Below are positions 6,079 to 10,613 of a stretch of DNA of 12,883 bases, one piece after another (the first letter of the stretch is position 1; each line of letters starts with the position of its first letter). A model generated the notes under the pieces. That model saw nothing but the letters and a program-made list of their open reading frames with translations. It did no database searches and had not been told where the DNA came from. This DNA is from a virus: UHGV virus genome UHGV-1980648; one strand, 5' to 3'. A program made the position numbers and the translations under genes.

Positions 6079-6140
6079 CTTCGCACGCCAGCAAAATCTG
6101 GCGTCGGGATTTGCACCCCGGATATTCAACCGCGACAGAC

Positions 6141-6162
6141 ACACGCCGCGAGCGTGTTTTTT
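6141..6162 (+). terminator. Intrinsic terminator or attenuator in the leader upstream of the ORF6N gene
   Basis: ACACGC-cgcga-GCGTGT followed by TTTTTTGTT; preceded by two further hairpins at 6086-6103 and 6104-6120. Confidence 0.5.
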
Positions 6163-6326
6163 GTTGTCGTAAGCACACGCACATCTGAATTATGGTGGGG
6201 CGTATGGGGGAGCCGAAAGGCTCGCCGGTTGGTTGATCCGGTAGTGCAAACCCTGTACGTCTCACCACCCAAAGATTTGCACCTGACGGTGGTGATAGTT
6301 AAATTCATCAACCAGAGGGCGTTGTC

Positions 6327-7028
6327 ATGGCGACTCAAATTTCCGTTGAAACTCTTTCCCCAATTGCCTACAACCAGATCCCCGTAATTACTACAGAATT
6401 ATTGGCGCAATTGTATGGCACTGAAACAGTCAATATAAAAATGAATTTTTCCCGTAACTCTGCGCGATTTGTACAGGGAAAACATTTCTTTAAGTTGGAA
6501 GGGAATGAACTACGTGAGTTTAAGCACAGACTATCTTTAAGCGAGTCTGTTAGCCGCGAGGTAACAGAAAGTTACTCTGTGAAAATCGCCCGCAATGTTC
6601 GCTCCCTCATCCTCTGGACAGAACGCGGCGCAGCCCGTCACGCAAAAATGCTCGAAACCGATCAGGCGAGGGAAGTGTTCGAAAAACTGGAAGACTGCTA
6701 TTTCAGCCAGGGAAAAACAGCACCAACCGAACAGCAGCCGCAGATTCAGCCACAATTCACAGCCGAGGAAATCATCCTCCTTTGCTACATGCAACTCTGG
6801 ATGGAAAAAGCCCAGGACCTTAGCAAGCAGCTGTACCCCATAATGAAAGAGCTGAACTCCTCATACACGAACAAGCTGTATGACATTGCGTTTGAGACCA
6901 TCTACATGGTGACGAAGAACAGAGACGCGCTACTAAGGGAGGTAACACGTCTCGACATGTCAAGTTCCGTTATCCAGCGGGCCATGCCAATGCTGAAAAG
7001 CCTGCGGGCAAGACAATTTGAATTCTGA
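6327..7028 (+). CDS. ORF6N-domain protein, putative antirepressor-like regulator
   Basis: 233 aa; N-terminal IPVITTELLAQLYGTETVNIKMNFSRNSARFVQGKHFFKLEGNELREFK...LWTERGAARHAKMLETDQAREVFEKLEDCYF fits the ORF6N pattern from memory; GAGGG RBS. Confidence 0.55.
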   Translation: MATQISVETLSPIAYNQIPVITTELLAQLYGTETVNIKMNFSRNSARFVQGKHFFKLEGNELREFKHRLSLSESVSREVTESYSVKIARNVRSLILWTERGAARHAKMLETDQAREVFEKLEDCYFSQGKTAPTEQQPQIQPQFTAEEIILLCYMQLWMEKAQDLSKQLYPIMKELNSSYTNKLYDIAFETIYMVTKNRDALLREVTRLDMSSSVIQRAMPMLKSLRARQFEF

Positions 7029-8544: not shown

Positions 8545-8779
8545 TATTCAGCAGGTGCCTGAACGCATGGCTTTATTCAGGTCGTCTGGAAAAGCGCATG
8601 AGCAGCGTAATAGCGGAGTTCATGGCGAAGAGTATATGAACAGATTATTCGAATGCTATATGAGACTGAAGCACGGAGATCGCTATGACCTGACACGTGA
8701 TGCTGACGGTTTCTACTGCCGTGAAGTTGTGAAACGAATGTTTGAAGTGTGGTGTCATTGTAAAGGATGGGGGCTGTGA
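8537..8779 (+). CDS. Hypothetical Cys-rich protein, translationally coupled to the next gene
   Basis: ATG 8537 (MRDIQQV...) with AAGGGGA RBS, overlapping the ninH stop; 80 aa; its stop overlaps the next start as TGATG. Confidence 0.4.
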   Translation: MRDIQQVPERMALFRSSGKAHEQRNSGVHGEEYMNRLFECYMRLKHGDRYDLTRDADGFYCREVVKRMFEVWCHCKGWGL

Positions 8780-9393
8780 TGCGGCTAACCCCAGTATTCG
8801 GCATGGTTAACTTTATTAATGATGCTCATTTCCGCCGCATATGGAGGCATCCGAAGAAAATCATTAACTCTCGTCAGAAAGCATGGGTTCACTACATGCT
8901 ACAGGTATGGGGAAATGTTAACGCTGGTGATGATTCTCCTTGTGGTGCAATTAACGTTATTGGGCGACTGATGATTCGCAGTCAGTGGAGCGATGACAAA
9001 GCTAAGCAGATTGAGTCTGTTGTCATGCGTCTGTATGAAGAAGACGGACTACGTGGAGATGAACTCCATCAGAAAGCCCGAGAACTGGTCATCCCTCAGT
9101 CATCGGCAGGTAATATCATTGCTCTCGCCAAAGAATCCGATGATGCTGCTTTCGTTGAACGTGTGATGGTTGAGACCTTTCATCGTGAAAGCCCTGTCCG
9201 TGATGTAGCTATTAGGCGATATTGCAATCGCGACAGCACGCAAGATATCGCCAGGATGATTTCTCAGATAACAGGAGTTGATATTCAGTATTGCCGGAGG
9301 CGGGTCGTGTGGTGCGAGAGGGTCCTTGATTCAGAAATGTTTTATGCAATGAAGCGAGAATTGGAGAAAGAACTTCTAGTGATTGCTGGATGA
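8779..9393 (+). CDS. Putative late-gene antiterminator (Q-position protein); identity by position only
   Basis: 204 aa from ATG 8779 (the ORF track starts at 8767); last gene before a pR'-like promoter and tR'-like terminator; no clear similarity to lambda Q by eye. Confidence 0.35.
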   Translation: MRLTPVFGMVNFINDAHFRRIWRHPKKIINSRQKAWVHYMLQVWGNVNAGDDSPCGAINVIGRLMIRSQWSDDKAKQIESVVMRLYEEDGLRGDELHQKARELVIPQSSAGNIIALAKESDDAAFVERVMVETFHRESPVRDVAIRRYCNRDSTQDIARMISQITGVDIQYCRRRVVWCERVLDSEMFYAMKRELEKELLVIAG

Positions 9394-9446: not shown

Positions 9447-9553
9447 TTGTGTATGCTCGGAGCAAAAGCGCACTGAGAAGCGAAAGAGAAATCCTGATTT
9501 ACCTCGGTCGTCGATAATATTTAGGATCGGCATACTGGCTAGATTAGGTAAAG

Positions 9554-9584
9554 GCCTCGGCAGAAATGTCGGGGCTTTTTGTTT
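9554..9584 (+). terminator. tR'-like intrinsic terminator
   Basis: Hairpin 9554-9575 (GCCTCGGC-agaaat-GTCGGGGC, two G-U pairs) followed by TTTTTGTTTG. Confidence 0.5.
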
Positions 9585-9657
9585 GCACAACAGGTAAGAG
9601 CATTGAACCCGCAGACCTCGTGGAATTGGTGAAAGGTGTGCGCAGTGCTCTTATCGT

Positions 9658-9784
9658 TGTGGTGAAGCTCAATGGCGAGCTAGCAGACAGGCGACTGTGA
9701 AAATACTAGTCATGTAGCGGATCGCCGCGCGTATTGTAATCGGCAGCGCACCGATGGGAGCTGGTTCGATTCCGGCCGCCACAA
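9658..9784 (+). other. tRNA-like element: degenerate or insert-bearing tRNA, possibly an ileX/ileZ-like remnant
   Basis: Canonical T-arm GCTGG-TTCGATT-CCGGC at 9760-9776; 3' acceptor CGCCACA pairs with TGTGGTG at 9658-9664; D-arm-like GCTC-aatggc-GAGC; AGGCGACT resembles the E. coli tRNA-Ile2 anticodon stem; no canonical anticodon arm and length about 127 nt. Confidence 0.25.
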
Positions 9785-9926
9785 TCCAAACTGAGCCGTA
9801 GCCTCTGGGTGTCCTGAATTCATCAGTGATAGTTACGCTGCGGCCTTCTACATACGATTTTTGTGAAAAGCGGGTGGCAAGAGGCTGCGAAATTTTTAAA
9901 TACCTCACAATTCCACAGCTTGATGA

Positions 9927-10123
9927 TTGTCTGGCTGCCGGAGAATTTGTTAAAAATTGCATCGCGTGGTGAATCCCCCTCAGCGGCGGGGCATCTGGCA
10001 AAGTGTATGATCCAGCGAACATGCAAATTCAGTAGCCAGGCTGAATTTACCGGGAGGCACCTGGCACCATGCGACAGACAGAAATTAGGCTATACTTCAG
10101 CCCCTCTCCGGAGGGGCTTTTCT
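9927..10123 (+). repeat. Paralogous unit A: promoter-like box, structured core, intrinsic terminator (candidate small RNA gene)
   Basis: TTGTCT (9927-9932), 17-nt spacer, TTAAAAAT; core closed by CGCGTGGTG (9963-9971) pairing with CACCATGCG (10065-10073); internal hairpin AAATTCAG/CTGAATTT; terminator at 10099-10123. Confidence 0.5.
10099..10123 (+). terminator. Intrinsic terminator of unit A
   Basis: GCCCCTC-tccg-GAGGGGC followed by TTTTCT. Confidence 0.6.
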
Positions 10124-10312
10124 GTGCAGGATGTGTCACAGTTTCCTGAATTCTGAGTACTGTCCTGTTACTCAGGGTGCTATATTTTCTGACGTGATGA
10201 AAGTCTGCCGGAAGGCGGAACGTATCGGAAATGACCCAGTAGAGAAAACGTTGACTCAGATACCGATGCTGAGTTACCGGGAAACCGGCATCACATGACC
10301 GCTATCCTTCCA

Positions 10313-10395: not shown

Positions 10396-10606
10396 TTGTC
10401 TGGCCAGCGGGAAGTTTGTTAAAAAAATATGGCATGGTGAATCCCCCTGTGCGGAGGGGCATATCAGCGACAGGTGTTTGGTCACACCCCTTATCCTTTC
10501 TGGTGCGGGTTCAGGTGCTGATACTGAACTCACCGGGAGGCACCCTGCACCATGCATGAACGGTACATAGCGCTACTCTCCAGCCCCTCTCCGGAGGGGC
10601 TTTCTT
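10396..10606 (+). repeat. Paralogous unit B: promoter-like box, structured core, intrinsic terminator (candidate small RNA gene)
   Basis: TTGTCT (10396-10401), 17-nt spacer, TTAAAAAAATAT; core closed by GCATGGTG (10432-10439) pairing with CACCATGC (10548-10555); internal hairpin GTTCAG/CTGAAC; shares blocks TGGTGAATCCCCCT and CACCGGGAGGCACC with unit A. Confidence 0.5.
10582..10606 (+). terminator. Intrinsic terminator of unit B
   Basis: GCCCCTC-tccg-GAGGGGC followed by TTTCTTGTTG. Confidence 0.6.
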
Positions 10607-10613
10607 GTTGGAT

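Follow-up and report, generated by a model that had tools for sequence, protein, structure and literature searches.

Lambdoid phages carry transfer RNA (tRNA) genes in their late leaders, downstream of Q and the terminator tR' and upstream of stx, esterase or lysis genes (PMC8022706, PMC12445682). Here we describe a tRNA-like element in the UHGV virus genome UHGV-1980648, a stretch of 12,883 nucleotides (nt) that is called the window when its full length is meant. The element lies on the plus strand, is conserved, and has a covarying secondary structure with a tRNA-Arg-like core. It carries a self-complementary loop and has moved between genomic contexts. Its acceptor, D and T arms are those of the late-leader tRNAs of 933W (ileZ-argN-argO), phage L and phage 21, especially tRNA-Arg, and it contains an Arg-type anticodon-like hairpin. 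Unlike these tRNAs, the element alone has a 57-nt arm between tRNA positions 26 and 27, A33 and C37, a paired discriminator and no CCA.

Phage T4 encodes two stable RNAs of about 120 to 140 nt, "species 1" and "species 2" (rnaC and rnaD), in its tRNA cluster. Their role is unknown, and in rnaC the T arm and the 3' end resemble those of a tRNA. The two RNAs are processed together with tRNAs. Judged by analogy, they are the closest functional counterpart of the element. A T4-like location in a tRNA cluster holds for the element in Skate, gmqsjt-1 and their relatives and is absent in the window, and no self-complementary loop arm was seen in rnaC or rnaD. Homology to these RNAs was rejected: our family model R1, run with filters off, scored 14.8 bits on rnaC and nothing on rnaD, and ordinary T4 tRNAs scored 15 to 22 bits.

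Other RNAs imitate tRNA as well. YrlA is a noncoding RNA bound by Rsr/Ro60 that mimics the D and T arms, is a substrate for tRNA enzymes and occurs in some phages (PMC4201824). It lies within about 4 kb of rsr and has a GNCGAA(N)G Ro-binding motif near its 5' end, termini in the Ro-binding stem and a closed "acceptor" (PMC4201824). YrlA identity was rejected, as neither the window nor the annotated homologous prophage contains a TROVE/Rsr gene, the element has no GNCGAA motif, and its termini lie at the acceptor-like stem. The tRNA-like domain of transfer-messenger RNA (tmRNA) shares with the element an acceptor/T-arm minihelix and a long helix where the anticodon arm would be. The Rfam tmRNA model matched the copy in phage HK75 only, over its 3' part and at 20.2 bits versus a gathering score of 47. 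The element lacks G3.U70, a tag reading frame and pseudoknots, ARAGORN called no tmRNA, and tmRNA identity was therefore rejected.

Kissing-loop elements, such as the human immunodeficiency virus type 1 dimerization initiation site (HIV-1 DIS), phi29 pRNA and those of large multimeric bacterial RNAs, reside in molecules unrelated to the element. The shared feature is a 6-nt self-complementary sequence in an apical loop; in the element its versions change between lineages and self-complementarity is kept by covariation. In phi29 pRNA, two loops are complementary to each other and not each to itself; in the element, dimerization is a prediction from sequence. No Rfam family describes the element, and keyword and exact-sequence literature searches revealed no paper on it; the list of 10,006 candidates from a 2023 viral structured-RNA survey lay outside this comparison. 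The element is one copy of a conserved, unannotated phage RNA family that we class with the tRNA-derived mimic RNAs.

RESULTS

The window copy has a tRNA framework with an enlarged interior

Positions 9658 to 9784 of the window combine an acceptor-like stem of 7 bp with a D arm and a canonical T arm. Between these, the copy has 74 nt where the Rfam tRNA model has 18 anticodon-arm positions. The parts of the core, with the evidence for each in brackets, are as follows.

9656-9664, plus strand: 5' strand of the closing (acceptor-like) stem, partner 9777-9785, 9 bp made of the canonical 7 plus pairs -1:73 and -2:74 (Rfam tRNA alignment, pair counts, RNAalifold)
9667-9680, plus strand: D arm, GCTC 9667-9670, loop AATGGC with the invariant GG, GAGC 9677-9680 (Rfam tRNA alignment, pair counts)
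9682-9738, plus strand: extra arm of 57 nt, between tRNA positions 26 and 27 (covariation, RNAalifold, in-silico deletion)
9705-9710, plus strand: self-complementary hexamer ACTAGT, center of the apical loop, proposed kissing site (covarying versions)
9739-9755, plus strand: hairpin H2, ATCGG, loop CAGCGCA, CCGAT, equivalent of the anticodon arm by alignment (model R1, ARAGORN, covariation)
9760-9776, plus strand: T arm, GCTGG 9760-9764, TTCGATT 9765-9771, CCGGC 9772-9776 (Rfam tRNA alignment, pair counts)
9777-9785, plus strand: 3' strand of the closing stem, CGCCACA, then A9784 (paired with T9657) and T9785 (paired with G9656), CCA not encoded (sequence, pair counts, RNAalifold)

The acceptor-like stem proper, TGTGGTG (9658-9664) with CGCCACA (9777-9783), consists of six Watson-Crick pairs and one G.U pair. 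An earlier, sequence-only reading of the window had proposed the acceptor stem, the D arm, the T arm and their spacing of about 127 nt, and all four were found. As in canonical tRNAs, the acceptor stem, a D arm with GG in its loop and a T arm with a TTCRANY loop follow one another in cloverleaf order. Canonical tRNAs measure 72 to 95 nt and have the anticodon arm directly after position 26; the element departs from both, with an overall length of 127 nt.

The match to the Rfam tRNA model (RF00005) spans exactly 9658-9784 and scores 26.5 bits versus a gathering score of 29 (E = 0.002; 451 nt searched). No tRNA reached the gathering score in the Rfam scan of the whole window, and no Rfam family other than tRNA matched the window element at E <= 10. 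ARAGORN found 0 tRNA genes in the window, also with introns allowed at default stringency, and no tmRNA. Relaxed ARAGORN settings produced a poor tRNA-Lys model with a 77-nt "intron," which was rejected since it ignores the conserved helices. Taken alone, the window copy is borderline evidence for a tRNA. The copy in Pantoea phage PdC23 passes the Rfam tRNA gathering score with 37.4 bits, and searches of nine homologous loci gave tRNA matches and one weak tmRNA match only. Because the element is conserved and its helices covary, the tRNA-like feature is far beyond chance. One condition for dropping the sequence-only reading was that no tRNA model score above threshold; this is formally the case for the window copy, yet the test is too narrow and is outweighed, because the evidence from the family overrides the score of a single copy.

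Comparative analysis supports every helix of the element

Two alignments were used: A3, with 35 distinct copies and a hand-derived structure, and A4, with 56 distinct copies aligned to the covariance model. In A3, 94.8% of the cells were paired, versus 29 to 45% when partners were slid by 1 to 3 columns, and 15 pairs changed on both sides. The covariation score of A3 was 0.313, versus 0.129 in shuffles, with 0 of 500 shuffles reaching 0.313. In A4, 94.9% of the cells were paired and double changes occurred in 21 of 34 pairs; again, 0 of 500 shuffles reached the observed value. RNAalifold independently yielded the same architecture.

Pairs of the closing stem were 97.6 to 98.5% paired, with AU/UA and GC/AU exchanges, and the outer pairs -1:73 and -2:74 that RNAalifold added covary as well (GC 28/AU 4 for one and UA 15/GC 11/AU 5 for the other). 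The D arm was 100% paired, with changes from G-C to G.U only. The T arm was 99% paired, with double changes at three of its five pairs (for example, GCATG/CATGC, GATGG/CCATC and GCAGG/CCTGT). The first set of copies had been collected with a search pattern inside H2, which left H2 invariant; a pattern independent of H2 recovered the stem variants ATCAG/CTGAT, ATTGG/CCAAT and ATAGG/CCTAT. The tRNA elbow motifs, GG in the D loop and TTCGANT in the T loop, are invariant, and 1-nt insertions and deletions (indels) are confined to loops. The sequence-only reading had described a disrupted anticodon region; instead, a complete anticodon-like hairpin of 5 bp and 7 nt is present at 9739-9755, and the interior consists of two well-defined hairpins rather than fragments. 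A pseudoknot between GCGC in the H2 loop and GCGCG in the internal loop of the extra arm is possible; both sequences are nearly invariant, and single variants are uncompensated. The minimum free energy (MFE) fold offers an alternative helix, GAGCUAGC with GCUGGUUCG, which was rejected as unsupported because changes in the T stem are compensated inside the T stem.

G.U pairs are frequent on the plus strand only. Since the opposite strand would have A.C at these sites, it is the plus-strand transcript that carries the structure.

These results bear on the view that the element is a tRNA pseudogene in decay or resembles tRNA by chance. Such an origin would fit the sub-gathering Rfam score, the negative ARAGORN result and the lack of a standard anticodon arm at the expected place. 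We nevertheless regard it as extremely improbable, given hundreds of copies at 71 to 100% identity, compensation in 21 of 34 pairs, several invariant loops and 1-nt indels in loops only. The "decayed tRNA" offered by the sequence-only reading is thus contradicted by strong purifying and compensatory selection in hundreds of phages.

The extra arm ends in a self-complementary hexamer

The extra arm contains two helices, each predicted independently by RNAalifold. Helix S1 pairs GCAG (9683-9686) with TTGT (9734-9737) and covaries as GCAG/CTGC, GGG/CCC, GAG/CTC, GTGT/ACAC and GCGA/TCGC. Beyond an internal loop, with ACA facing the conserved GCGCGTA (9727-9733), helix H1 pairs GGCGA-CTG (9690-9697) with CGG-a-TCGCC (9718-9726), and double changes were found at all nine of its pairs. 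The apical loop of H1 is 14 to 20 nt long in the family and 20 nt long in the window (9698-9717), and purine-rich sequence flanks the hexamer at its center.

This hexamer is self-complementary in 148 of 148 loci and occurs in seven versions: ACTAGT (72 loci), TCTAGA (28), TCTGGA, self-complementary via G.U (22), TCGCGA (17), GCTAGC (7), ACCGGT (1) and, in further copies, TCCGGA. When treated as three "pairs" on A3, the hexamer was 100% paired, versus 70.8% in shuffles (0 of 500 reached 100%) and 23 to 40% when slid. Hairpins within the loop were considered in place of a palindrome and rejected, as upon inspection their registers were inconsistent between lineages. Because the hexamer cannot fold on itself and such hairpins are inconsistent, the hexamer is most simply read as a site where the loops of two RNA molecules contact each other. 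The sequence pattern suggests that the RNA may well dimerize by kissing of this hexamer.

The core resembles tRNA-Arg and lacks decoding features

When A3 columns 28 to 85 (the 57 nt at 9682-9738 in the window) were deleted in silico, ARAGORN at default settings called tRNA-Arg in 25 of 35 members, with anticodon GCG in 24 and UCG in 1; neutral flanks and CCA had been added to the sequences used. The calls obtained upon deletion of the arm indicate that the element is a tRNA-Arg-like cloverleaf with an extra arm at 26/27. True tRNAs aligned to family model R1 place their anticodon arm on H2 and delete the 58 S1-H1 model positions, and for this reason the extra arm is placed between position 26 and the anticodon-like stem. 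By junction order alone, S1-H1 could alternatively be taken for a lengthened anticodon arm, with H2 as a long variable arm. A scan allowing 0 to 30 nt between the D arm and H2 found no relatives without the extra arm.

The deletion result bears out the suggestion in the sequence-only reading of a tRNA-derived structured RNA. Its companion suggestion, a tRNA with an insertion, is essentially right too, with the correction that the insertion lies outside the anticodon loop, between the D arm and H2. The "tRNA-Ile2-like anticodon-stem fragments" of the same reading are absent, and the element has no specific similarity to ileZ, argN or argO of 933W. Descent from the tRNAs of Stx phages was rejected, since global alignment to these three genes showed generic tRNA similarity only.

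The anticodon-like loop, C-A-GCG-C-A, has C37 and no U33 and so departs from the pattern Y32-U33-NNN-R37-N38. Variants of the H2 loop are TAGCGCA, CATCGCA, AATCGCA and a single CTGCGCA, the only copy with U33. The first three loop positions vary and CGCA is invariant; in anticodon terms, C35 and G36 are fixed and position 34 is G or U. The discriminator is A, C or T depending on context and is paired, whereas that of a tRNA is single stranded and precedes a CCA, which E. coli tRNA genes encode. No CCA is encoded here, and the 3' flanks hold no conserved CCA. Pair 3:70 is U-A or A-U. The features of an intron-containing tRNA were likewise not seen, as the insertion is at 26/27 and not at 37/38 and inspection revealed no bulge-helix-bulge around S1. 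A group I intron would be far longer than 57 nt.

Could the element nonetheless be a working tRNA-Arg (GCG or UCG) that tolerates the arm or loses it after transcription? The ARAGORN calls upon arm removal, the invariant C35 and G36 with G or U at position 34, the location typical of lambdoid tRNA genes and the adjoining real tRNAs in Skatevirus would all suit such a tRNA. Against these stand A33 and C37 in nearly all copies, with U33 in one, and a paired, variable discriminator (A, C or T) without an encoded CCA. The D loop is also short and has C at the position matching A20; A20 is an identity element for arginyl-tRNA synthetase in E. coli. We know of no bacterial splicing system that excises a segment at 26/27, inspection found no bulge-helix-bulge, and ARAGORN in intron mode returned nothing at default stringency. 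Finally, the arm itself, including its loop, is under selection. A decoding role is therefore improbable.

The element occurs in unrelated contexts across many phages

A copy of the element is present in 674 of 5,426 complete E. coli genomes, in 92 phage records and in at least 145 IMG/VR contigs. Among the phage records are those of HK75, the P22-like phages 683R2 and BIS08P22, the Salmonella Skatevirus group (Skate, Akira, Seszw and others) and Pantoea phage PdC23; host genera include Salmonella, Klebsiella, Enterobacter and Pantoea. Copies are 71 to 100% identical across distinct phage lineages. In a one-per-species genome set, a genome-wide pattern scan returned mostly chance matches, formed by neighboring ordinary tRNAs, and four real members, in Klebsiella pneumoniae, Enterobacter intestinihominis, Superficieibacter electus and one metagenome-assembled genome (MAG). 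The family may extend beyond the Enterobacterales in forms outside our search patterns. A 9.7-kb contig in a MAG labeled Cellvibrionaceae (locus L142) has a core identical to the common 683R2-type version (L006), from which HK75 differs at two bases; this contig is probably a mis-binned enterobacterial phage contig.

Five unrelated genomic contexts were seen. The conserved unit, which includes sequence upstream of the core and corresponds to 9586-9785 in the window, is arranged in them as follows.

Context i, about 60 loci: Q, tR', unit, late genes (window, HK75)
Context ii, about 24 loci: Q, HNH endonuclease, terminator, unit, terminator, holins
Context iii, about 30 loci: nutL, unit, N
Context iv, about 6 loci: Skatevirus
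Context v, about 14 loci: between portal and terminase genes

In context iii, covarying flanks, such as AATGTTTTGG/CCAAAGCATT and GTTGCTTTGG/CCAAAGCAAC, lengthen the closing stem to about 20 bp. In context iv, the unit is antisense to tail genes, promoter-like sites lie upstream in Skate, and a tRNA-Ile and, in some phages, also a tRNA-Arg(UCU) follow on the same strand; in Skate and gmqsjt-1, the element opens, as its first gene, a same-strand cluster that also holds tRNA-Ile and tRNA-Arg(UCU). In context v, the unit is opposite in strand to its neighbors and is followed by a terminator and a small open reading frame (ORF). ARAGORN reads the tRNA adjoining the element in Skate-like phages (L216 1744-1820, L003 3246-3322 and L048) as tRNA-Ile with anticodon AAT, and its counterpart in L085 and L098 with CAT. 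An AAT anticodon is unusual for a bacterial system.

Database records label the site of the element as nothing, as "hypothetical protein" or as "polyubiquitin-A," and in one case its 3' 58 nt as "tRNA-Ser." Small ORFs are called over the element in the window (9669-10022, minus strand), in L006 (2926-3051) and in L008 (3026-3139). Given no Pfam match, 1-nt indels and substitutions that preserve helices, ORFs annotated over the element are very likely spurious. The same evidence speaks to the proposal that the conserved feature is a minus-strand protein gene. An ORF of 117 amino acids (9669-10022) does overlap the element, some RefSeq records list it as a "hypothetical protein," and the INT59 and 683R2 copies have small annotated ORFs across them as well. 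However, this ORF has no Pfam match and is lost in other contexts, and the 1-nt indels and paired substitutions preserve helices and not a reading frame, so that a protein-coding explanation has a vanishingly small likelihood.

The element may be exchanged at the tips of leader hairpins

In the N leader of HK97 (L009 533-668), in 933W and in many Stx phages, a stem of about 20 bp, CUUUGGGGUGUGGUG / CACCACACC-A-CCAAAG, lies between nutL boxB and the N ribosome-binding site. It encloses a conserved, unannotated interior of about 95 nt, and 98 phage records match at >=90% identity. The fold has an MFE of -54.2 kcal/mol (z = -3.5), and Rfam gave no match. In other phages, the tRNA-like element occupies the same N-leader stem. 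A hairpin upstream of the HK97-type stem, CCAAAG-TGAA-CTTTGG, competes for the CTTTGG strand. The HK97/933W interior shares the long stem and the word GGGAATA with the element but has no T arm and no Rfam match; it was rejected as a diverged homologue and is treated as different cargo.

A second arrangement concerns P0, the hairpin that forms the upstream part of the unit outside the nutL context. About 250 nt upstream of the tRNA-like copy on the minus strand of L082, there is a second P0 whose end is an "empty" mini-hairpin, CGTTGTG-GCAG-CACAACG. This empty tip suggests that the tRNA-like core behaves as a cassette at the tip of a stem.

Genes for HNH or homing endonucleases are found near the element in several unrelated contexts: directly upstream in L019 (7614-8099; Q-holin type), after N in L004 (3590-4090; BIS08P22) and, several of them, in L215 (554-934 and 3967-4506; PdC23). 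They recall segB within the T4 tRNA cluster (L217).

Such mobility raises the idea of a DNA-level element, in which a terminal inverted repeat and a central palindrome would mark a miniature mobile element, a site of recombination or homing or a palindrome to which a protein binds, with only incidental likeness to tRNA. A discrete cassette in unrelated sites, the P0 scaffold with an empty mini-hairpin in L082, the swap of the N-leader cassette with another interior in one stem, the frequent proximity of HNH or homing endonuclease genes and the short direct repeats (CACAAC or ACCAAAG) flanking the unit all favor it. The helices, however, tolerate G.U and not the A.C of the opposite strand, a strand asymmetry that fits RNA, and the TCTGGA version of the hexamer (22 loci) is self-complementary only via G.U. 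A DNA site would have no need of the invariant GG in the D loop or TTCGANT in the T loop, and no transposase or integrase is associated. A purely DNA-level function is consequently very improbable.

In the window, the element lies in a presumed late leader downstream of Q

The window is a lambdoid prophage with, in order, NinB, RusA, NinH, a Q-like antiterminator (8767-9393; phrog_753), a terminator-like hairpin, the element, two STnc100 copies and a SASA-type esterase. In a matching annotated genome, the lysis genes lie downstream of the esterase. The analogy to the tRNA position of Stx phages, drawn by the sequence-only reading, holds in that the element is downstream of Q and a tR' terminator and upstream of a SASA esterase; it does not extend to homology with ileZ, argN or argO. 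The features around the core, with their evidence, are as follows.

9553-9584, plus strand: intrinsic-terminator-like hairpin and U tract, GGCCTCGGC-AGAAAT-GTCGGGGC-TTTTTGTTT, presumed tR' of the late leader, context outside the conserved unit (sequence; partial terminator-type Rfam matches at 9554-9579)
9586-9591, plus strand: box CACAAC, where the conserved unit begins, same sequence as in the 3' strand of the closing stem (conserved in every context except nutL)
9593-9655, plus strand: hairpin P0, 13-bp stem GGTAAGAGCATTG (9593-9605) with CAGTGCTCTTATC (9643-9655), hypervariable tip 9606-9642, abuts the closing stem (predicted in every non-nutL copy)
9795-9844, plus strand: predicted downstream hairpin GCCGTAGC ... 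GCTGCGGC, conserved with HK75-type copies only, membership in the unit uncertain (MFE fold of 9582-9850)

In HK75, the equivalent of the 9553-9584 hairpin is annotated as pR'/Tr', and the element lies between pR'/Tr' and the holin gene. The hairpin upstream of the unit differs in other contexts, and contexts other than the HK75 type have different hairpins or terminators at the position of 9795-9844.

The stems of P0 covary (GGAGAGAGTATTT/AAGTACTCTCTTC, AGGTAATGGCACT/AGTGCCATTACCT and GGAAATCGCTTTG/CAAAGCGATCCCC), and the pair nearest the tip occurs as G-C, C-G, T-A and A-T. At least eight unrelated inserts of 30 to 60 nt occupy the tip among the window copy (9593-9655) and homologous loci including L027, L003 and L048. 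The P0-tip insert of L027 holds a canonical T-arm hairpin (GCAGAGTTCGATTCTCTGC), and the word GGTGAAAG is common to several P0 tips. In folds of the upstream part alone, CACAAC pairs with GTTGTG (9656-9661), which never varies; in the fold of the whole unit, CACAAC is unpaired. In these models, it is possible that the box competes with the closing stem, giving a co-transcriptional alternative fold.

These surroundings bring in the main rival explanation, in which the element acts in cis within the leader. Together with P0 and the closing stem, the tRNA-shaped module would then form a processing, insulator or stabilizer cassette in antiterminated transcripts. Cleavage by RNase III and/or RNase P could uncouple the leader from N or the late genes or set mRNA stability, and pairing of CACAAC with GTTGTG could serve as a switch. 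Several features agree with this. Copies lie in sense orientation in transcribed leaders, from tR' to the late genes and from nutL to the N ribosome-binding site, and the 5' strand of the closing stem can be tied up by the upstream box. This stem exceeds that of a tRNA in length, and its outer pairs covary; with about 20 bp and covarying flanks, the nutL-N copies are typical RNase III substrates, and HK97 and 933W share the long stem with a different interior. On the other hand, the Skatevirus and portal/terminase copies have no obvious downstream target gene, because they are antisense to their neighbors and have their own promoter-like sites or terminator. One core serves both early and late operons, and a processing site needs neither an invariant anticodon-like loop nor a covarying self-complementary hexamer. 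On balance, we consider a purely cis-acting role unlikely.

Other RNAs are encoded in the window. Two tandem copies of the STnc100 small RNA family, at 9934-10127 and 10403-10612 (138.7 and 129.9 bits), each with a terminal terminator-like hairpin, lie between the element and the esterase gene. Farther upstream, isrK (6085-6162; 75.4 bits) adjoins a C4-type antisense RNA (6188-6272; 74.4 bits), upstream of an ORF6N/P22 antirepressor-like gene (6327-7028). Together these look like an RNA-controlled anti-repressor module.

DISCUSSION

It is highly probable that the element has the architecture described here and constitutes a functional RNA family. As an overall explanation, we favor a mobile, phage-borne, non-decoding tRNA-Arg-like RNA mimic that dimerizes, with a probability of roughly 0.5. 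Positions 9586-9785 are one copy of a mobile noncoding RNA module whose core, 9656-9785, goes back to a tRNA-Arg-type cloverleaf. The core still has what proteins and RNase P recognize in a tRNA by its shape: the stacked acceptor stem and T arm, the elbow between D loop and T loop, and, with C35 and G36, an anticodon-like hairpin. What decoding requires (U33, a purine at position 37, a free discriminator and CCA) is gone, and a 57-nt arm with a self-complementary apical hexamer has been gained at the D/anticodon junction.

In the window, the module is expected to be transcribed as part of the Q-antiterminated late leader; elsewhere, it would be transcribed from pL before N or within a tRNA gene cluster. 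The element would act as RNA, and host tRNA-handling enzymes would recognize and probably trim it. Factors that know tRNA by these surfaces, among them tRNA nucleases, synthetases, RNase P and the enzymes that modify tRNA or add CCA, are therefore probable candidates for binding or trimming this RNA. Two molecules may then join by their kissing hexamers. The dimer would be a tRNA mimic that most likely serves as a decoy for, or inhibitor of, a host factor that acts on tRNA(Arg)-like substrates, for example, a tRNA-targeting defense nuclease, and would not supply decoding capacity.

Many defenses of E. coli and Salmonella cleave tRNAs, and lambdoid and other coliphages carry tRNAs as a counter to tRNA-cleaving defenses (PMC10264068, PMC11555353, PMC12445682). 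Because defenses cleave tRNAs and phages place their own tRNAs in such loci, a non-decoding mimic is the most economical function. A decoy function specifically is a tentative proposal, with odds well short of even. More speculative still is a new RNA-only class of counter-defense or host manipulation: a tRNA(Arg) mimic that forms dimers or higher-order assemblies, is exchanged as a cassette at the tips of leader hairpins and traps or inhibits a multimeric tRNA-acting host enzyme, for instance a tRNA-cleaving defense nuclease, with the hexamer keeping the dimers lineage specific.

Several points weigh against the non-decoding mimic. Most copies were gathered with exact-match patterns. A4 was fitted to the covariance model and leans toward it, and, as many of the sequences are close relatives, independent events are fewer than the counts of compensatory cells suggest. 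The MFE fold of a single sequence keeps the closing stem and misses the D and T arms, with -45.3 kcal/mol versus -35.7 kcal/mol for the comparative structure (z = -1.1); failures of this sort are usual for tRNA-like folds. Loop-loop dimerization is deduced from self-complementarity alone. No partner gene consistently co-occurs with the element across contexts, and no target for a decoy was identified in this way. Moreover, the paired discriminator and the 20-bp closing stem of the nutL-N copies disfavor simple release of a tRNA-sized RNA by RNase P, and a cis-acting structure would suit them just as well.

Few viruses have been studied as thoroughly as the lambdoid, P22-like and Skate-like phages, and yet a structured RNA of about 130 nt that they carry is missing from Rfam. 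With a covariance model of the family, hundreds of prophages would be freed of spurious ORF calls. Taken together, the N and late leaders point to a modular layout of phage leader RNAs, in which cargo sits in the tip of a hairpin. The element exemplifies a rebuilt tRNA gene: its recognition surfaces are retained, its decoding features are gone and a self-pairing arm has been added. For the current arms race over tRNA-cleaving defenses, it thereby offers a concrete candidate for mimicry of tRNA at the RNA level, and one that is easy to test.

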